A stretch of DNA of 32,000 nt from Patescibacteria group bacterium (GTDB taxonomy: Bacteria; Patescibacteriota; Patescibacteriia; 2-01-FULL-39-33), in the NCBI GenBank assembly GCA_041662745.1, contig JBAZRV010000002.1, positions 90,001 through 122,000 of the forward strand, in the 5' to 3' direction. Positions 18,403 to 31,415 of the stretch are shown in pieces (within the stretch, counting starts at the first letter, position 1; each line of letters opens with the position of its first letter). Below the pieces are notes generated by a model, which worked only from the letters and a program-made list of their open reading frames with translations, searched no databases and had not been told where the DNA came from. Made by a program: the position numbers and the translations under genes.

Positions 18403-19176
18403 CTACAATCCTGACTTGCTTATAATTAAATCCACAAAAGAAGAGATTTTATTACTTAACGCCATGTCATCATTTGTATATTTATCTAAATTTTCATCCG
18501 CAAATATGTAATCTGTTTCATTAAAGTGATTATTAATTCCAACTCTAAGAGGTTTATAAAAATTATGAAAAGATTCTTGAAATCTAAATCTTTCGCTTCC
18601 CTTAGTGCCGACACCCATTAGTCTTCCAGAAAATGGATTATTCTTTTTGAGATTTGAAAGATTGTTCTTAATACTTTTATCGATTTCTATTTGACTAAAA
18701 TGGTAAGATATTTTATTTAGTGGAAAAGCAGAAGATAAACAGTTTCTATTTGAAAAGATTTCTATGCCATTTTCTATGAAGTTATAATCACAAACATATT
18801 CTTCATCTGGAAATGTCTGTCTTTCTTTGTATAATTCTAAATTAGTTGCTGAATTAGAAATATCTTTTTTTAGGATAAGAGATTTAGAAGTAATATCATA
18901 TACGTATATAAGCGTTTTAAATTTTTCTATTTTTCTTTCTCGGCAATCATTTTCAAACAAGAATAGACTAGATTTAACACATATTGGCTTTCTATAATAT
19001 TTATAATCCACAACATACCTAACAAAAGATATGCTTCCTGAATCTATGTTAGTTTTAAACCCACCTACAACATCCACTCTGTTTAACGGAGCTAGTATCT
19101 CAGTAATATTATTGCCAAATAATAAAAAAATAGCCGCTATAGCTATAAGGACTATAATAAAGTAACGTTTTTTCAT
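18403..19176 (-). CDS. orphan hypothetical protein with N-terminal TM/signal, encoded in a strongly AT-rich segment
   Basis: 257 aa. MKKRYFIIVLIAIAAIFLLF anchor. No motif I recognise. About 25% G+C on hand-counted lines, against about 45-50% in neighbouring genes. Confidence 0.6.
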   Translation of the reverse strand: MKKRYFIIVLIAIAAIFLLFGNNITEILAPLNRVDVVGGFKTNIDSGSISFVRYVVDYKYYRKPICVKSSLFLFENDCRERKIEKFKTLIYVYDITSKSLILKKDISNSATNLELYKERQTFPDEEYVCDYNFIENGIEIFSNRNCLSSAFPLNKISYHFSQIEIDKSIKNNLSNLKKNNPFSGRLMGVGTKGSERFRFQESFHNFYKPLRVGINNHFNETDYIFADENLDKYTNDDMALSNKISSFVDLIISKSGL

Positions 19177-19345
19177 AAATTTAGTATTAATAAATAACTT
19201 GTATTTAAAAATGATAAAAATTTTCTTTTACCCTGAATGCGAATTCAGACAAAACCGCCAATTGATTTTTGATTATAAAATTCCGTATGATTTGGTCGCC
19301 GCAAGCGGCGGCCAGACCGAGGGAAATTTGACTTTTATTCGAATG

Positions 19346-19417
19346 TACCGCCACGGGGAATCGAACCCCGATTACAGCCTTGAGAAGGCCGCGTCCTAAC
19401 CATTAGACGATGGCGGC
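19346..19417 (-). tRNA. tRNA-Glu (anticodon CUC), no encoded CCA
   Basis: Minus-strand read GCCGCCA TC GTCT AATGGTTA GGAC G CGGCC TTCTCAA GGCTG TAAT CGGGG TTCGATT CCCCG TGGCGGT A folds as a 72-nt cloverleaf. G1-U72 is a wobble pair. The D-arm TCGTCTAATGG..AGGAC is typical of tRNA-Glu. Confidence 0.85.
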
Positions 19418-21947: not shown

Positions 21948-23096
21948 TTATTTCCGATACGCTTCAATGGTTTTTTCTATCATTTCTCTTAGGTTGAATT
22001 CTTTTTTTACTTTGATCAGCCCCGCTTCGCCGAATTGCTTTCTTAATTTTTCATCGGCCAACAGCTTTATTTTTTCGGCTAGCCTTTCCGGCGATCGCGG
22101 TTCAATCAGATAACCGGTAACGCCATTGTCAATTATTTCGGGAATGCCGCCGACCTTAGCGGCTATGACGGGCAAGCCGGCCGACATGGCCTCCAGTATG
22201 AAGTAGGGCAGGCCTTCTTTGGTTGACGACATCACGGCCAAGTCAAAAGCTTTCAAGTATCTGGCGGCTTCTTTTTTGTTGCCGGCCAGAATAATGTTAG
22301 CTTCTAATTTTAATCGTTTGATCTGTTGTTCTAATTCCTTCCTTAATTCTCCTTCGCCGATGATTATCAGCTTGTAATCGGCAACCGGCAGGAGACTGAC
22401 AGCGTCAATTAAATAATTCAATCCTTTAGCCGGGTAAAAGTTGGCAATAGTTCCGATTATCAGCTTATCATTATTTTTAGTAACAGTCGCCGAGTCGTCG
22501 GTTTTTAATAATTCGCCCAAAGCCCCTTCTTTAGCCAAAAAATAATCAGCCGGCAGATCTATGCCGTTACGAACGATTATTAATTTTTCAGCCGGAGCGA
22601 TTTTTGCTTTAAGGCCGGCTTGCCGATCAAAATCAGACAGGCAAATGAAATAATCCTTAAAACCGGCAAATGATTTTTCTATCAAAAAATAAAACAGTTT
22701 AGTCAGGGGATTGAGGCTTTCATTAAAAACCCAGCCGTGTACCGTATAAACCACTTTAGCGCGATGGCGGGCTAATTTGGCGGCCAAGGATCCCACCGCT
22801 CCGGCTTTACTGCTGTTTAGATGGACAACATCGGGCCGTTCTTGTTCAATCAGTGTTTTTATCTCTTTGACTGCCAACAAATCATTAATCAAACTGATCC
22901 TTCTCACCAATCTCTTAAGGGGAAGGAATTTTATATTTTCTTCTTGCAATCTTGCTGTTAATTCCCCGACAGACTCTTCCCCGCCGGCCACCGTAACGGC
23001 TATGTTATTATTTTTGGCTAAATTTACAGCAAAAGTATGGACATATTTTTGCGCTCCGCCCCAGGATGATTGAGTGATGATAAATAACGCTTTCAT
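21948..23096 (-). CDS. GT4-family glycosyltransferase
   Basis: 382 aa. N-terminal SWGGAQKYV motif. C-terminal EGLPYFILEAMSAGLPVIAAKVGGIPE (EX7E-type). Confidence 0.9.
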   Translation of the reverse strand: MKALFIITQSSWGGAQKYVHTFAVNLAKNNNIAVTVAGGEESVGELTARLQEENIKFLPLKRLVRRISLINDLLAVKEIKTLIEQERPDVVHLNSSKAGAVGSLAAKLARHRAKVVYTVHGWVFNESLNPLTKLFYFLIEKSFAGFKDYFICLSDFDRQAGLKAKIAPAEKLIIVRNGIDLPADYFLAKEGALGELLKTDDSATVTKNNDKLIIGTIANFYPAKGLNYLIDAVSLLPVADYKLIIIGEGELRKELEQQIKRLKLEANIILAGNKKEAARYLKAFDLAVMSSTKEGLPYFILEAMSAGLPVIAAKVGGIPEIIDNGVTGYLIEPRSPERLAEKIKLLADEKLRKQFGEAGLIKVKKEFNLREMIEKTIEAYRK

Positions 23097-23107
23097 AAGT
23101 TGTCGTC

Positions 23108-23164
23108 TTGATTTTTTTAGCTTATTTCTGATATAATATTAAGGTATTAATTGATAATTTACAA
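23108..23164. promoter_or_regulatory. interdigitated divergent promoter pair, copy A
   Basis: Plus strand: TTGATT (23108-23113), N18, TGaTATAAT (23129-23137). Minus strand: TTGTAA (23164-23159), N17, TAATAT (23141-23136). The two -10 elements overlap. Confidence 0.45.
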
Positions 23165-23171
23165 GACCGCC

Positions 23172-23252
23172 ATGAACAAATTAATCGGTTTTATCGGCCA
23201 GGGTTGGATCGGCAAAAGTATAGACATATTTTTGCGCTCCGCCCCAGGATGA
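23172..23252 (+). pseudogene. remnant 5' end of the dehydrogenase-like gene created by the duplication (26-codon ORF)
   Basis: MNKLIGFIGQGWIGK is identical to the start of 23355..24206. It then reads into the duplicated antisense GT4 sequence and stops. Confidence 0.7.
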
Positions 23253-23279
23253 TTGAGTGATGATAAATAACGCTTTCAT
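23181..23279 (-). pseudogene. remnant 5' end of the GT4 gene created by the duplication (32-codon ORF)
   Basis: MKALFIITQSSWGGAQKYV is identical to the start of 21948..23096. It then diverges and stops. Confidence 0.7.
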
Positions 23280-23290
23280 AAGTCGTCGTC

Positions 23291-23347
23291 TTGATTTTTT
23301 TAGCTTATTTTTGATATAATATTAAGGTATTGATTGATAATTTACAA
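23291..23347. promoter_or_regulatory. interdigitated divergent promoter pair, copy B
   Basis: Same elements as copy A shifted by 183 nt. The substitutions fall in the spacers, not in the hexamers. Confidence 0.45.
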
Positions 23348-23354
23348 GACCACT

Positions 23355-24206
23355 ATGAACAAATTAATCGGTTTTATCGGCCAGGGTTGGATCGGCAAAA
23401 ATTATGCCGATGACTTTGAAGTTAGAGGTTATCAAGTGATTCGCTATTCTTTGGAAGAACCCTATCTCGCCAACAAGGAAAAAATCAGCGAGTGCGATAT
23501 CGTGTTTATTGCCGTGCCTACTCCTACCACTCAAGCGGGGTTTGATGATTCCATCGTCAGAAGCGCCGTAAAGCTGGTCGGCCAAGGCAAGCTTGCGGTA
23601 ATCAAATCTACGATTCTGCCCGGTACGACAGAGTCAATCCAAGCGGAAAACCCAGGCGTTTATTTGTTTCATTCGCCGGAGTTTCTGTCCGTTTCCACCG
23701 CTTATGACGATTCGCGCCATCCGCAAAGGAATATTGTCGGCCTGCCCATAGATAATGAGGAATATAAAACCAAAGCCCGAGAGGTGATGTCGGTGTTGCC
23801 CCAAGCTGATTTTTCTCTTATTACTTCCGCCAAAGAAGCGGAGTTGTTCAAATATTTACGGAATTGCTTTTTTTACACCAAAGTCGTCTATATGAATATG
23901 CTTTATGATCTGGCTAAGAAACTGGGTTGCCGGTGGGAAGTGTTAAGGGAAATCATGTCCAATGATCCCTGGATCGGCAACATGCATATTGATCCGGTGC
24001 ATAAAAGCGGCCGGGGCGCCGGCGGAGAATGCTTTATTAAGGATTTGGCCGCGCTTAGGCGTTTCCACAAGCAAAATCTGAACGATGAAACGACGGATTG
24101 GGTTTTTTCCGCCTTGGAGAAAAAGAATATTGAATTACTGCTAAAAAGCCAAAAAGATTTGGATTTGCTCAAAGGCGTTTACGGCGAAGATATATTTAAG
24201 AGATAG
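23355..24206 (+). CDS. nucleotide-sugar dehydrogenase-like protein (UDP-glucose/GDP-mannose dehydrogenase family, short form)
   Basis: The ATG at 23355 is preferred over the TTG at 23334. GFIGQGWIG Rossmann motif. CDIVFIAVPTP, KSTILPGTT and SPEFLSVSTAYDDSRHPQRNIVG resemble the family N-terminal and central motifs. At 283 aa it is shorter than canonical members. Confidence 0.6.
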   Translation: MNKLIGFIGQGWIGKNYADDFEVRGYQVIRYSLEEPYLANKEKISECDIVFIAVPTPTTQAGFDDSIVRSAVKLVGQGKLAVIKSTILPGTTESIQAENPGVYLFHSPEFLSVSTAYDDSRHPQRNIVGLPIDNEEYKTKAREVMSVLPQADFSLITSAKEAELFKYLRNCFFYTKVVYMNMLYDLAKKLGCRWEVLREIMSNDPWIGNMHIDPVHKSGRGAGGECFIKDLAALRRFHKQNLNDETTDWVFSALEKKNIELLLKSQKDLDLLKGVYGEDIFKR

Positions 24207-24209
24207 TTT

Positions 24210-24243
24210 GCTATGTAACCTGTTACGTAGCATGCTACGTAAC
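24210..24243. repeat. three GCTAyGTAAC half-sites (direct, inverted, direct) at 12-bp spacing, including a perfect 22-bp palindrome
   Basis: gctatgtaac (24210-24219), gttacgtagc (24222-24231), gctacgtaac (24234-24243). 24222-24243 equals its own reverse complement. The element sits in the 47-nt gap between two operon genes. Confidence 0.8.
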
Positions 24244-24253
24244 AATTTATCAC

Positions 24254-25441
24254 ATGCCTGCGGAAAACAAAAAAAGAATCTTGATTTTTTCTTTGGCTTA
24301 CCATCCGTTTGTGGGCGGAGCCGAAGTGGCTATCAAAGAAATTACCGAGCGATTGGGTGAAGATTTTGAATTTGACATGATCACGGCCAACTTGAGTGGC
24401 CATGAGCCGAAGGAGGTTGAGAATTTTAACGGCCTTAACAAAGTTTATCGCCTCGGTTCCGGGAAACTTGATAAATATCGTTTTCCTTGGCTGGCCTATC
24501 GGAAGGCCCTGGAATTGCAACGGCAGAACGATTATGACTTGATTTGGGCGATGATGGCTAATCAAGCGGGCTGGGCGGCTTGGAAATTCAAGCGCCGATT
24601 TCCGCAAATCCCTTATTTATTGACCCTGCAAGAAGGGGACAGCGAGCGGGATATTTGGCTTCGCACTTGGTTTATCCGGCCGCTTTATAAGGCGATTTAC
24701 CGCCGCGCCGATCGGATTCAGGCGATCAGTAATTTTTTGGCCCGGCGCGCCAAGCGTTTGGGCGCGAAGTGTCCGATTGAGGTAGTGCCGAATGGAGTAG
24801 ATCAGTTAAAAATTAATAATGAAGAATTAAGAAATAAAAGTAATAGCATAAAAAGGGTTATCTCAGTTTCAAGGTTGGTTAATAAAAATGGCTTAGAGGA
24901 TTTGATTAAAGCAATTGCGATAGTCAATAAAGACAATGATAAGCCGGTAATTTTAAAAATTATCGGAGAAGGAAGATTAAGAAACGAGTTAGAAAAACTG
25001 ATTAAAAAATTAAAAATAAATGACCGGCCTGTAGTAAAGGAATTAGACAAGGAGGAAATAGTTTTGGCGGGGCAAGTTTCTAATAAGCAGGTGTATCAAT
25101 ATTTATCTCAAGCCGATGTTTTTGTCCGTCCCTCATTGTCCGAAGGTTTGGGTAACGCTTTTCTGGAAGCGATGGCTGCGGGGGTGCCGGTAATCGGCAC
25201 GCCGGTCGGCGGGATTCCTGATTTCTTAAAAGGCGAGGAAGCGGGAGACGGGCAGACCGGTTGGTTCTGCGAAGTGAAAAATCCTGAAAGCATTGCGAAA
25301 AAGATTAGATTGATTTTTGATCCCCAAAATCAGGAATTAGTTAAAGTAGTAACAACTCGGGCTAAAAAGTTGGTGGAAGAAGAATACGATTGGGATGCAA
25401 TCACTAGTAAGATAGATAAAATTTTTACACAATTATTATAA
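24254..25441 (+). CDS. GT4-family glycosyltransferase (contains an internal AT-rich patch)
   Basis: 395 aa. LAYHPFVGGAEV N-terminal motif. C-terminal SEGLGNAFLEAMAAGVPVIGTPVGGIPDF. Confidence 0.9.
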   Translation: MPAENKKRILIFSLAYHPFVGGAEVAIKEITERLGEDFEFDMITANLSGHEPKEVENFNGLNKVYRLGSGKLDKYRFPWLAYRKALELQRQNDYDLIWAMMANQAGWAAWKFKRRFPQIPYLLTLQEGDSERDIWLRTWFIRPLYKAIYRRADRIQAISNFLARRAKRLGAKCPIEVVPNGVDQLKINNEELRNKSNSIKRVISVSRLVNKNGLEDLIKAIAIVNKDNDKPVILKIIGEGRLRNELEKLIKKLKINDRPVVKELDKEEIVLAGQVSNKQVYQYLSQADVFVRPSLSEGLGNAFLEAMAAGVPVIGTPVGGIPDFLKGEEAGDGQTGWFCEVKNPESIAKKIRLIFDPQNQELVKVVTTRAKKLVEEEYDWDAITSKIDKIFTQLL

Positions 25442-27174: not shown

Positions 27175-27897
27175 ATGAAAGATATTTTATTATTGCCCAC
27201 CTACAACGAGAGAGAGAATGTCAAAATGATTATTCCTGAAATTTTTTCCCTTATTCCCGAAATAGTAGTCATGGTTATCGATGATAATTCACCTGACGGC
27301 ACGGCGCAAGCGGTGCAAGAGTTGATGACGATTTATCCCCGGTTAAGAATTTTGAAACGAGAAAAAAAGACCGGACTGGGCAATGCCTATAAGGAGGCGA
27401 TGCGTTTGGTTATGGCTGAAGACGGTGTCCGCTCGGTTATCACTATGGATGCCGATGGTTCTCATCAGCCCAAGTATTTGGTTGATTTTTTGGCTAATAT
27501 TAATGATTATGATTTAATCATTGGTTCGCGCTATATCCGGGGTGGCGGCGTAGAGAACTGGGAATTTTGGCGCCGTTGTTTAAGCCGTTTCGGCAATATT
27601 TATTCCAAGATTCTTACCGGCCTGCCGATTAATGATTTCACCGCCGGTTTTATGTGTGTTAAGGTGGATTTTTTAAAGCAGTTAGATTTGGTTAGTGCCG
27701 GCGCCTCGGGTTATTCTTTTTTGATTGAATTGAAATTCAATTTGATCCATAACCTAAAAGCCAGAGTCAAGGAAGTGCCGATTATATTCAAAGTGAGAAG
27801 GGAAGGAGAATCCAAGCTGTCTAACTCAATTATCGGCGAGGGAATAATGACCCCGCTAAGAATTTGTTCCAGAAGAATATGGCAGAACAAAAAATAA
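27175..27897 (+). CDS. polyprenyl/dolichyl-phosphate mannose synthase-like GT2 (Ppm1/DPM1 family)
   Basis: 240 aa. LLPTYNERENV, VIDDNSPDGT and ITMDADGSHQP motifs, typical of DPM1-like GT2 enzymes. Confidence 0.85.
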   Translation: MKDILLLPTYNERENVKMIIPEIFSLIPEIVVMVIDDNSPDGTAQAVQELMTIYPRLRILKREKKTGLGNAYKEAMRLVMAEDGVRSVITMDADGSHQPKYLVDFLANINDYDLIIGSRYIRGGGVENWEFWRRCLSRFGNIYSKILTGLPINDFTAGFMCVKVDFLKQLDLVSAGASGYSFLIELKFNLIHNLKARVKEVPIIFKVRREGESKLSNSIIGEGIMTPLRICSRRIWQNKK

Positions 27898-30800
27898 TTT
27901 GCCCGATTTGCCGATCGGCTGACAATAAATTTTACGGCCAGAAAAATAATTTCAATCTGCGGTTATGCCGGGATTGCGATTTGCTTTTTGTTTGGCCGGT
28001 GCCGTTTGATTTAAAAGGAATTTATTCTCAAGATTATTTTGTTAACAGTCGGAATAACAGTGATTTCGGTTATACCAATTATGATCAGGATAAAGAATCA
28101 ATGCGCGAGGTATTTGTAAAAATCATCAGTCAGTTGGAAAAGCTTATCCCAGGTAGAAGAATTTTTGATGTCGGCGCGGCCACCGGTTATTTTTTGGACT
28201 TGACTAAGCAGCGGGGCTGGCAGACCGCGGGAACGGAAATATCTGACTACGCCGCTAAGGTCGCTAATGAACGCGGACATAGGGTTTTTTGCGGTGAGTT
28301 GGATCAGCTGCCAATTGAGGGTAAATTCGATGTGGTGACGATGTGGGACGTACTGGAGCATATTGGCGATCCCCTGGCCTATCTCAAGAAGGCTAATGAC
28401 CTATTGGTTGATGGCGGCTTAGTGGCCATCAATACTGTAGATCGGGGCAGCGCTTTGGCCAGGGTTCTTGGGTTGAATTGGCATTTGATTGTCCCGCCGG
28501 AGCATTTGAATTTTTATTCCCGCGAAAATTTAGAGATCGTTTTGCGACAAGCCGGGTTTGAAATCATTAGTATTTCCACTATCGGAAAGAAATTTTCTCT
28601 GGCGTATATTTTTAAGACGTTGTATTTCTGGCAGGGCTGGGGCTTATGGCGCAGTTTGTCAGTGTTTTTTGACAAACCGTTTTGGCGCCGCTGGTCTTTG
28701 CCGGTAAACTTGCGTGACAATATTTATATTTTGGCGAGAAAGAGAAGCAGTTCGATTGTCCGATTGCCAGGGGAAAACGCCGGTAAGCGAAAAAATTTAT
28801 TAATTTGTGCCGGCATTTATCCGCCGGATATCGGTGGCCCGGCAACTTATGTGAAGGGTTTAGAAAGGGGATTAGCCGAAGAATTTAATGTCAAAATCGT
28901 GACTTACGGCGACCAAGAAGGCCAAGAACCCTCTCACGTTTATAAGATATCTCGCCAACAGCAAGTTGTTTTTAGATATTTAAAATATTTTTGGCAGGTG
29001 GTTAAGTTATTGCCGCAAGCGGATGTTGTTTATATTCAGGGGCCGGTTTCCGAAGGCTTGCCGGCTGCTGTGGCTTGCGGTTTAAGGCGCAAGGCATACC
29101 TATTAAAAATCGTCGGTGATTTTGCTTGGGAGCAGGGCAGCCAGCGTTATGGCGTCAAGGAGAATCTTGATAATTTTCAGCACAATAAATACGGTTTCAA
29201 GATTGAATTATGGCGGCGGATTGAAAAATGGGTGGCGCAGAAAGCCAAGTTGGTTGTCGTTCCCAGTAATTATTTGAAAAAAGTCGTTACCGGTTGGGGC
29301 ATTAAAGCTGACAAAATAAATGTCATCTATAATGCGATTGAAAGAATTGATATTATTGAAAACCGAGAGCAGCTAAGAAATAAGTATGGCCTGGATGGTT
29401 TTGTTATGTTATCGGTCGGTCGCCTAGTCCCCTGGAAGGGCTTGGCCGCCCTGATTGAAGTAGTCAAAGAATTGTCTGCAGAAATTAATGATTTAAAATT
29501 AGTGATTATCGGTGACGGCCCGGAGCGTCAGAATTTGGAGAATTCAGTTAAGGCCAAAGGGTTGGAGAAAAACATTATTTTTACCGGGCAATTAAGCAGG
29601 TCTGAGGTGGCTGCTTACTTGAAGGCCGCAGATTTGTTTATTTTAAACACTTCCTATGAGGGGTTAAGCCATGTTTTAATTGAGGCTATTAAGGCCGATT
29701 TGCCGATAGTTACGACCGCTGTTGGCGGTAATCCTGAATTAATGGAGCAATATGGCCACGGCTTTATGGTGGCCTATAATAATAAGCCGGAGTTGATTCA
29801 AGCAATCAAACAAGCTAGAAAAATTAATCGTCCGATTGAGACGACTGGAGATTTTTTATTGCAGTTCGATTATGATTTTATGGTTAGTCAGACCGGTCGG
29901 TTATTGCGGGCTGAAGCGGTTAGAACCGATATTGCCATTACCGATCAAAGACGAGAGAAAATTTTAAACGACTGTGATCGGCAAACTATTGTTTTAGTTC
30001 AGATTAATTTTAGCCAAGACCATTCGGAAACAGTTTTGCCCCTAGGCATCTTATCGGTCGGCAGCCATTTGAAACGTTGCGGCTATAAAGTTGAACTGGT
30101 AAATATTACGGAAAAACAAATTACTGAGATAGCCGCGATTATCGCCGAGAAAAATCCGCTCTGTGTCGGCTTATCAGTTATGACCGGCGTGCAGACGCGC
30201 CAGAGCGCTGAATTATCCAAAAAAATAAAAACTTTAAATAAGGCCATACCAATTATTTGGGGCGGTATTCATCCGTCGCTTTTGCCAGAGCAGTGTCTGG
30301 GTGAGGATTACATTGATTTCGTAGTTATTTCTGAGGGAGAGATAACTACGACGGAATTAGTAGAAAAAATAATCAGAGGAGGGGATTTTCATGATGTTTT
30401 AGGCATCGGCTATAAGCAAGCCGGAAAAATTACCATCAATCCCAACCGCCCGTTTATTGCCAACCTTGATGATTTCCGCCTTGATTGGTCTTTATTGGAT
30501 TTGGAGCTTTATATTTCTCCGTTGAAAAATTTTAAGCGAGTTATTGCTTACAAGGCCTCGCGCGGTTGCCCGTTTAATTGCTCTTTTTGCTATAATAATG
30601 CCTTTAATCAGAATAAGTGGCGTGTTTGGTCGGTGGAGGCGGTAGCGGAGGACATTAATTGGCTGAAAGAGCATTATCAGATTGATGCCGTTAAATTTTA
30701 CGATGATAATTTTTTTGTTGATAAGAATCGCGCTTGGCAGATCTTAGAAAAAATAAATTTACCGACGCATTTGGAGGTGCGAATTGATACGATTGACGAC

Positions 30801-31415
30801 GACTTGGCTCAAAAACTCAAAGAGTTTAGGGTTTTTGACATGTTAATCGGCGTCGAGTCGGGCAGCGATCGCATTTTAAGTCTAATCGATAAAAGATTTA
30901 CCGTTGATCGTATTTTGGCCGGAGTAAAGCTTTTAGCCAAGTATAATTTACCGGCTACTTATTCGGCGATTGTCGGTTTGCCGACGGAAACCAAGGAAGA
31001 GTTTGACCGAACAGTTGACTTGTTTAATCAAATTAAAAAAATTCAGCCGTCCGCGGTTTTTTCCTTAGGCGCTTATTTGCCTTATCCGGGATCAAAAATG
31101 TATGATTTTGCCATTAAGCAGGGTTTTAAGCCGCCAACTAAAACAGAAGATTGGGGCAAGATTGATCGTTTTAGGAAAGATTTTAGTTCGCCTTGGGTGA
31201 ACGCGCAAAAAGTTTGGCGGATTAGGGAATACTTTAAACTCCTGAATTGGCGGCTTGGTCCAATTATCAAGTGGTTTAAATGGCGCATTGAGCATCGATT
31301 TTTTGCTTGGCCGATAGATATTTATTTAGTGGAATACTTTGGCGGTATAGCTATTGAACAGAGGGGGTTTTTAGGCAAGACACTAAGAAAAATTTATAAT
31401 TTATTAAGAAGATAA
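27879..31415 (+). CDS. tri-domain fusion: Zn-ribbon class I SAM methyltransferase + GT4 glycosyltransferase + B12-binding radical SAM enzyme
   Basis: The ATG at 27879 is preferred over the TTG at 27864. CPICRS-N17-CRDCD zinc ribbon. DVGAATG motif I. GT4 core IYPPDIGGPATY...EGLSHVLIEAIKADLPIVTTAVGGNPE. B12-binding-like VLPLGILSVGSHLKRCGYKVELV...VGLSVMTG...IIWGGIHPS. Radical SAM CPFNCSFC at nt 30567-30590. Confidence 0.8.
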   Translation: MAEQKIICPICRSADNKFYGQKNNFNLRLCRDCDLLFVWPVPFDLKGIYSQDYFVNSRNNSDFGYTNYDQDKESMREVFVKIISQLEKLIPGRRIFDVGAATGYFLDLTKQRGWQTAGTEISDYAAKVANERGHRVFCGELDQLPIEGKFDVVTMWDVLEHIGDPLAYLKKANDLLVDGGLVAINTVDRGSALARVLGLNWHLIVPPEHLNFYSRENLEIVLRQAGFEIISISTIGKKFSLAYIFKTLYFWQGWGLWRSLSVFFDKPFWRRWSLPVNLRDNIYILARKRSSSIVRLPGENAGKRKNLLICAGIYPPDIGGPATYVKGLERGLAEEFNVKIVTYGDQEGQEPSHVYKISRQQQVVFRYLKYFWQVVKLLPQADVVYIQGPVSEGLPAAVACGLRRKAYLLKIVGDFAWEQGSQRYGVKENLDNFQHNKYGFKIELWRRIEKWVAQKAKLVVVPSNYLKKVVTGWGIKADKINVIYNAIERIDIIENREQLRNKYGLDGFVMLSVGRLVPWKGLAALIEVVKELSAEINDLKLVIIGDGPERQNLENSVKAKGLEKNIIFTGQLSRSEVAAYLKAADLFILNTSYEGLSHVLIEAIKADLPIVTTAVGGNPELMEQYGHGFMVAYNNKPELIQAIKQARKINRPIETTGDFLLQFDYDFMVSQTGRLLRAEAVRTDIAITDQRREKILNDCDRQTIVLVQINFSQDHSETVLPLGILSVGSHLKRCGYKVELVNITEKQITEIAAIIAEKNPLCVGLSVMTGVQTRQSAELSKKIKTLNKAIPIIWGGIHPSLLPEQCLGEDYIDFVVISEGEITTTELVEKIIRGGDFHDVLGIGYKQAGKITINPNRPFIANLDDFRLDWSLLDLELYISPLKNFKRVIAYKASRGCPFNCSFCYNNAFNQNKWRVWSVEAVAEDINWLKEHYQIDAVKFYDDNFFVDKNRAWQILEKINLPTHLEVRIDTIDDDLAQKLKEFRVFDMLIGVESGSDRILSLIDKRFTVDRILAGVKLLAKYNLPATYSAIVGLPTETKEEFDRTVDLFNQIKKIQPSAVFSLGAYLPYPGSKMYDFAIKQGFKPPTKTEDWGKIDRFRKDFSSPWVNAQKVWRIREYFKLLNWRLGPIIKWFKWRIEHRFFAWPIDIYLVEYFGGIAIEQRGFLGKTLRKIYNLLRR

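Follow-up and report, generated by a model that had tools for sequence, protein, structure and literature searches.

The stretch of DNA analysed here (the window; 32,000 nucleotides, positions 90,001 to 122,000 of contig JBAZRV010000002.1 in assembly GCA_041662745.1 of a Patescibacteria group bacterium) carries a 183-bp tandem duplication at positions 23029-23400, which doubles the predicted two-way promoter between a GT4-family glycosyltransferase gene and a dehydrogenase gene. Probably this array is no purpose-built regulatory device but the scar of an exchange of DNA. The specific history we favour, with a probability of roughly 0.45, is a tandem duplication that is heteroallelic and bounded by microhomology, left as a recombination scar where a swappable ~41-kb surface-glycosylation cassette has its left border.

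Structure and Reality of the Duplication

Tandem Repeats Finder (TRF) and a repeat finder report one array only at window positions 23029-23400, a 183-bp unit present twice with a score of 702 and by far the strongest in the window. Direct comparison of copy A (23029-23211, plus strand) with copy B (23212-23394, plus strand) gives exactly six substitutions, all of them transitions, at unit positions 11, 73, 100, 121, 141 and 143 (3.3% divergence). The period-183 match spans 23029 to 23400, so that the hexamer GCAAAA occurs at the left boundary (23029-23034, plus strand, inside the glycosyltransferase gene at codons 22-23), at the novel junction (23212-23217, plus strand) and at the right boundary (23395-23400, plus strand, dehydrogenase codons 14-15). 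The comparison recovers exactly what a first-pass annotation of the window had described, namely direct 183-bp copies with six substitutions and GCAAAA at three junctions. Each unit consists of 68 bp of the glycosyltransferase gene start (minus strand), 75 bp of intergenic sequence and 40 bp of the dehydrogenase gene start (plus strand); the 68 bp correspond to about 23 codons rather than the roughly 19 first proposed. In copy A the glycosyltransferase start belongs to the intact gene and the dehydrogenase start is a remnant, while copy B holds a glycosyltransferase remnant and 40 bp from the start of the intact dehydrogenase gene. Two remnant open reading frames (ORFs) overlap antisense in the middle, as the annotation had stated: one of 26 codons on the plus strand (23172-23252), with 15 dehydrogenase codons followed by out-of-frame junction sequence, and one of 32 codons on the minus strand (23181-23279), with 23 glycosyltransferase codons followed by junction sequence. 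No third copy of the unit is present in the genome, where other matches reach at most 27 bp.

Read-derived contig pieces with depths from four of six listed runs (X1-X4) were compared with window positions 22000-24500. X1 and X2 are possibly the source of the assembly and hence test the assembler, not the distribution of the duplication; X3 and X4 have small word shares, and only their placed pieces were used. In X2 the A-specific piece (23071-23201) has a depth of 62.7 and the B-specific piece (23254-23384) one of 62.4, beside flanks of 68.9 and 59.9 and with no differences, and in X1 the depths are 19.2 for A and 17.4 for B, with flanks of 22.6 and 17.1. Since each allele would stand at half depth if it came from one of two single-copy strains, A and B are not alleles of such strains, and the earlier view that the copy number is real and no assembly artefact is borne out by single-copy depth of both copies in X1 and X2. 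A 65-bp piece of X1 (23188-23252) crosses the junction at a depth of 13.1, with 24 letters to the left of the junction, below the 31-letter bar used for bridging. The X2 depths are consistent with near-fixation of the duplication, and the X1 junction depth leaves room for a collapsed minority. That two strain alleles or a chimera were written in tandem by the assembler is already nearly refuted. It could appeal to X1 and X2 as the possible assembly source, to the pieces listed, among which none covers the whole array and no X2 piece lies on the junction, and to the X1 junction piece, which is shallower (13.1 vs 17-23) and short on one side. Against it, A and B pieces stand at flank depth rather than half in both runs, junction-specific sequence is present in X1, and a second flank haplotype lacks comparable depth (at 23429, 0/17.1 in X1 and 8.3/73.9 in X2).

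The related genome G001 has one unit, with GCAAAA at its start and end, 183 bp apart, the left one in the same place as in the window. Relative to G001 the duplication is a net gain of 183 bp with nothing lost. A piece of X4 covering 22952-23217, with 14 differences, runs straight on into dehydrogenase sequence, and the locus L041 is single-copy as well. The comparison with single-copy relatives, which the annotation had called for, finds one copy in G001, L041 and the X4 piece. In all, 99 relative loci were examined, some of them the same contig twice, and 86 have at least 500 bp upstream; 31 of these 86 carry a divergent GT4 gene within 400 bp. Among 120 loci scanned with TRF, a period of at least 40 was found at the two loci of this genome itself and otherwise only as an unrelated 60-bp repeat in locus L075. 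The duplication is restricted to a single lineage and does not represent a new kind of system.

The L075 repeat (L075:1254-1374), in which a 60-bp unit is duplicated in tandem without mismatch, lies at the 3' end of a dehydrogenase homologue. The genome under study has another tandem duplication (G000:C1:119403-119861), with a 215-bp unit in 2.1 copies that are 99% identical; its flank, judged by eye, resembles the start of a structured RNA gene.

Placement of the Differences and a Haplotype Switch at the Junction

Polarised against G001, G002 (another relative) and L041, copy A is ancestral at all five intergenic sites, and all five intergenic transitions (23284, 23311, 23332, 23352 and 23354) are therefore derived in copy B. 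The sixth difference, at unit position 11, has the opposite polarity: copy B encodes Tyr20 as does G001, and the intact glycosyltransferase gene in copy A has the derived and rare His20, which is outside the six commonest residues at that column of 119 homologues. The derived changes of B thus number five in its 75-bp intergenic part, against none in 108 bp of dead remnant (P about 0.001-0.05 by test). At B's intergenic rate about 7 changes would be expected in the remnant and none is seen (P = 0.0007); the chance that five free changes all fall in B's intergenic part is 0.012, and in its mildest form, which asks for at least five intergenic changes out of six, the test gives P = 0.046. The history implied by the first-pass annotation, in which identical copies drifted apart, fits this distribution poorly.

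L041 is identical to copy A over 123 of 123 bp and then continues directly into its own dehydrogenase gene. It differs from copy B at 5 of 77 positions, from the dehydrogenase gene at 39 of 852 (pS 0.20, pN 0.004; 36 of the 39 are transitions) and at 4 of the 86 bp that follow. The rate is uniform, at about 5% (chi-square P = 0.75), and 0 differences in 123 bp at that rate has a probability of 0.003. The haplotype changes at the joint, with 0/123 differences from L041 to its left and 48/1015 to its right, as measured against one comparator and the low-depth run X3; the GCAAAA of the novel junction is itself the point at which L041-identical sequence passes into L041-divergent sequence. The X3 pieces 22979-23136 and 23107-23203 show no differences and carry the letters of A; they take in the His20 codon and 50 bp to the left of the array. 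X3 has no depth over the B-specific bin, and its dehydrogenase pieces are of the L041 type, with 4 differences in 23357-23518, as in L041, and all-L041 depth at 23429 and 23882. It also has no depth over most of the glycosyltransferase body (22084-22671), a gap that was given no weight in judging which way the transfer went. In cluster look-ups of 16 proteins, 14 of them found, the contig of L041 contributes its dehydrogenase alone. No strain variant of the glycosyltransferase turned up among 8000 candidates scored, the nearest other sequence being 80% identical.

The L041 contig begins exactly 123 bp (its positions 1-123) before the end of the microhomology. If the assembly word was 123 letters long, this start would be a graph fork at the right end of the duplication.

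The Predicted Two-Way Promoter as a Seam

Promoters were scored with a model built on 135 training sites of this genome (TTG-17/18-TG.TATAAT). The predicted plus-strand promoter of copy A (23108-23137, TTGATT-18-TG.TATAAT) reaches 19.4 bits, in the upper quartile of the training sites, and is conserved; its counterpart in copy B (23291-23320) reaches 19.7 bits. On the minus strand the candidate TTGTAA-17-TAATAT of copy A (23136-23164) is weak at 10.5 bits and that of copy B (23319-23347) scores 9.4 bits. This candidate matches 8/12, under the threshold of the first scanner, is the best minus-strand site in the genome-trained model, and has CAAG and TA positions that are invariant in 10/10 aligned rows. 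The plus-strand promoter and the overlap of the -10 elements, by 2 bp, are as first annotated, and the proposed doubling of the promoters holds in that predicted promoters lie in both units. It is also true that the substitutions spare all promoter hexamers, as the annotation had emphasised, but this is within chance (P = 0.17) and was rejected as evidence.

Across 10 aligned rows ATAAT, TA, GGTA and CAAG of the promoter core are invariant and CTTG is nearly so. The two-way promoter, itself predicted, is ancestral and was not created by the duplication, because single-copy relatives carry it and its core is conserved in the 10 rows. If the plus promoter of copy A reads through copy B, the cassette would have two strong predicted plus promoters, and the weak predicted minus promoter of B would give a short antisense overlap. 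Transcription is predicted to begin near 23144 and 23327 on the plus strand and near 23129 and 23312 on the minus strand. No terminator-like site was found in 22900-23500, and the RNA leader derived from A has no remarkable predicted fold (z = -0.82).

With 18-bp geometry, an alternative minus hexamer, TATTAT, reaches 2.8 bits, compared with 10.5 for the minus site first proposed, and was discarded. The invariant GGTA (23143-23146 and 23326-23329) lies just 3' of the plus -10 element and is conserved more strongly than the genome's promoter model predicts; it may bind a factor or belong to the minus promoter. A Shine-Dalgarno-like word occurs in only 73 of 447 upstream regions scanned in this genome.

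The two sides of the promoter have different affinities. G002 matches copy A at 88/93 bp from unit position 97 on and at 37/96 bp (ungapped) to the left of it. The glycosyltransferase is 81% identical in amino acids to that of G001 vs 59% to that of G002, and the genes upstream are also nearer to G001; the dehydrogenase is 97% identical to that of G002 vs 91% to that of G001. In L041 the gene after the dehydrogenase is only about 50% identical to that of the window, and different glycosyltransferases continue there. Judged from these alignments, modules in this genus meet at the shared promoter.

A Proposed Two-Strain Origin

From the structure, the polarity and the switch of haplotype against one comparator, all read directly from the alignments, we infer a transfer between strains and its route. 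The ancestral single-copy locus carried GCAAAA twice, 183 bp apart, around the conserved two-way promoter. DNA of one strain would then have entered another, one end of it pairing by homology and the other out of register, where GCAAAA in an A-type dehydrogenase start was joined to GCAAAA in a B-type glycosyltransferase start. An equivalent route would be a plain duplication followed by replacement of one half with the DNA of another strain. Either would yield the present arrangement, the left flank with copy A followed by copy B with the dehydrogenase gene and the cassette, the copies being different from birth. The remnants would show no decay because the copies differed from the start, and the scar would be tolerated because both outer genes are intact, each with its native promoter. 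Extra read-through from the second strong plus promoter into the cassette may help to keep the duplication.

In the genome, ComEC, DprA and RecA are above the cut-off in profile matches, and MutS_V has no match although the genome is 98% complete; both count for the favoured origin. Competence has been demonstrated in Saccharibacteria (PMC10633639) and is treated for Patescibacteria more widely (PMC10633639, PMC12455944). Microhomology-mediated tandem duplications (MTDs) with identical copies revert readily (PMC8639346), and long neutral persistence of such a structure is therefore less likely.

Several observations weigh against a two-strain origin. Ordinary recombination could have carried A from this lineage into L041. 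The evidence from X3 comes, among the pieces listed, from pieces of depth 3-5 that are linked by inference alone, and two of its three difference counts match those of L041 only roughly (12 vs 15 and 4 vs 6). Searches of 34 family genomes and 80 metagenome loci turned up no single-copy B-type haplotype, nor did two pattern scans, which gave one match in genome_contigs and none in viral_contigs. The differences from L041 in the dehydrogenase gene are split evenly by polarity (9 vs 8 resolved, 22 ambiguous), in contrast to B, where all five intergenic changes are derived, a one-sidedness with P of about 0.06. Five changes in 75 bp is also high for a constrained promoter (Fisher P = 0.05 vs G001, 0.15 vs G001 and G002 together); between A and G001, a much more remote relative, only 3 intergenic sites differ. 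C100, kept in 8/9 other rows, is changed in B, and each of B's five changes shifts the score, weakly, toward the dehydrogenase side.

Alternative Histories

The last of these points lead to the main and serious rival, which is possible if on the whole somewhat unlikely: a microhomology-mediated duplication in place, followed by selection on copy B for a division of labour of the two-way promoter. A second strong plus promoter would raise expression of the 41-kb cassette and so keep the duplication, and B, freed from serving the glycosyltransferase gene, would be tuned to the dehydrogenase at the expense of the antisense direction, which is of no use there. Its fullest form, in which a two-way promoter escapes compromise, with A remaining ancestral for the glycosyltransferase gene and five selected changes in B favouring the cassette and damping antisense transcription, is more doubtful. 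The contrast of five derived intergenic changes with none across the 108 bp of remnant free to change (P = 0.012, as given above) speaks for selection, as does the change of conserved C100 and A121 in B alone among close rows. In a specialisation index from genome-trained models the plus promoter gains 0.2 bits and the dehydrogenase start context 2.0, the minus promoter loses 1.1 and the glycosyltransferase start context 1.2, and every change raises the index (P = 0.004-0.006 vs random non-hexamer transitions; P = 0.02-0.04 for all four components in the expected direction). The index was, however, defined after the changes had been seen, with n = 5 and small shifts, and P rises to 0.2 once hexamer sites are included. 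Nor have the minus hexamers changed, which would be the simplest way to silence that promoter; copy A shows no reciprocal tuning, and an extra event is needed for an apparently single-copy strain with A and His20 and for the jump from 0 to 5% divergence from L041 at the junction. In the literature searched, outside which most subscription papers fall, nothing relevant on a duplicated or subfunctionalised divergent promoter in bacteria was found. Selection and the two-strain origin can be combined if B was tuned in its donor.

Selection apart, an unexceptional MTD with neutral drift between copies that began identical, B's promoter decaying while that of A serves, is unlikely. It would agree with the report that most MTDs are neutral (PMC13167724), and the six transitions out of six changes match the 36/39 in the dehydrogenase comparison; with His20 older than the event, all six changes would lie on B and the clustering would have a P of 0.046. 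That version, however, requires the single remnant change of B to have hit the G001 letter, and the remnants, as the freest DNA, should decay first, where about 7 changes are expected and none is seen. Moreover, the predicted plus promoter of B is not weaker, and a revertible structure would have to persist for long. The device proposed in the first-pass annotation, in which the duplication is kept for interference or antisense control by convergent transcripts, with the remnant ORFs as regulatory leaders, appears improbable. From the geometry, the two inner predicted promoters would, if both fire, overlap head to head over ~169 nt, and the hexamers of all four predicted promoters are kept and the remnants undecayed. 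Yet the array occurs in one lineage only and in none of the other loci examined, the predicted minus promoter is weak and weaker still in B, and the A leader lacks unusual structure (z as above). In addition, the basal activity of two-way promoters in Escherichia coli is described as too low for polymerase competition (PMC12825309).

Neutral gene conversion was set aside by reasoning alone: expansion and contraction should homogenise the unit middles more than their inner ends, and the reverse is seen.

Relation to Known Systems

The array has the structure of an MTD, in which a segment flanked by a short direct repeat becomes head-to-tail copies with three arms (Dan et al., 2021, PMC8639346; PMC13167724): the ancestral GCAAAA pair is present in single-copy G001 and the arms lie at both ends and at the junction, which upholds the annotation's call of a microhomology-type duplication. 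Such events are reported to be common and mostly neutral in bacteria (PMC13167724). In contrast to the identical copies from one chromosome described there, the copies here are 3.3% diverged in a non-neutral pattern and apparently stem from two haplotypes. Homology-facilitated illegitimate recombination (HFIR), a RecA-dependent process of competent bacteria, likewise uses 3-10 bp of microhomology at the joint (6 bp here), and duplications of 109-950 bp of a homologous locus have been reported after DNA transfer (PMC3240628). HFIR normally combines insertion with deletion, whereas the joint here runs backwards and duplicates without deletion in the recipient, so that the case is not textbook HFIR. 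The transformation-induced merodiploids of Streptococcus pneumoniae also arise as tandem duplications by out-of-register pairing during DNA uptake, but they measure about 100-900 kb and are bounded by IS861, compared with 183 bp and a 6-bp joint here (PMC3784515). As in bacterial bidirectional promoters (Warman et al., PMC12825309), the -10 elements between the divergent genes overlap on opposite strands; the predicted starts here are about 15 bp apart, unlike the spacings given there as common (18, 10 or 23 bp), and, again unlike them, each direction has its own conserved TTG -35 element.

If the two-strain origin is right, a lineage of uncultured Patescibacteria swaps surface-glycan genes between strains with a shared promoter as the seam, and 'diverged' tandem duplicates can be born diverged, so that their differences do not date them. 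If selection shaped copy B instead, the locus would be a rare and directly testable case of cis-regulatory division of labour, with A and B five bases apart.

Flanking Genes and Genomic Context

The genome comprises 1.02 Mb in 10 contigs, and close homologues are labelled Patescibacteria group or Ca. Buchananbacteria by their sources. The intact GT4-family gene (21948-23096, minus strand) encodes 382 amino acids with PF00534 and PF13439, and the intact, short gene of the UDP-glucose/GDP-mannose dehydrogenase family (23355-24206, plus strand) encodes 283 amino acids with PF03721 and PF00984. The latter heads a ~41-kb run of mostly glycosylation-type ORFs that extends to about G000:C2:154450; the type of those outside the window was judged from N-termini alone. 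The dehydrogenase has no match to the C-terminal UDP-binding domain, and its 27 closest homologues have 280-292 amino acids. In genus g14 (L012, L013 and L014) the dehydrogenase frame is longer, at 309-346 amino acids, and matches in two overlapping pieces, which suggests an internal in-frame insertion or duplication. Further along the window, at 27864-31415, a single ORF combines methyltransferase, GT4 and B12-binding radical SAM domains. On the other side, a tRNA-Glu (CTC) gene lies at 19345-19417 (minus strand), between the ORF at 18403-19176 and a Wzy_C gene.

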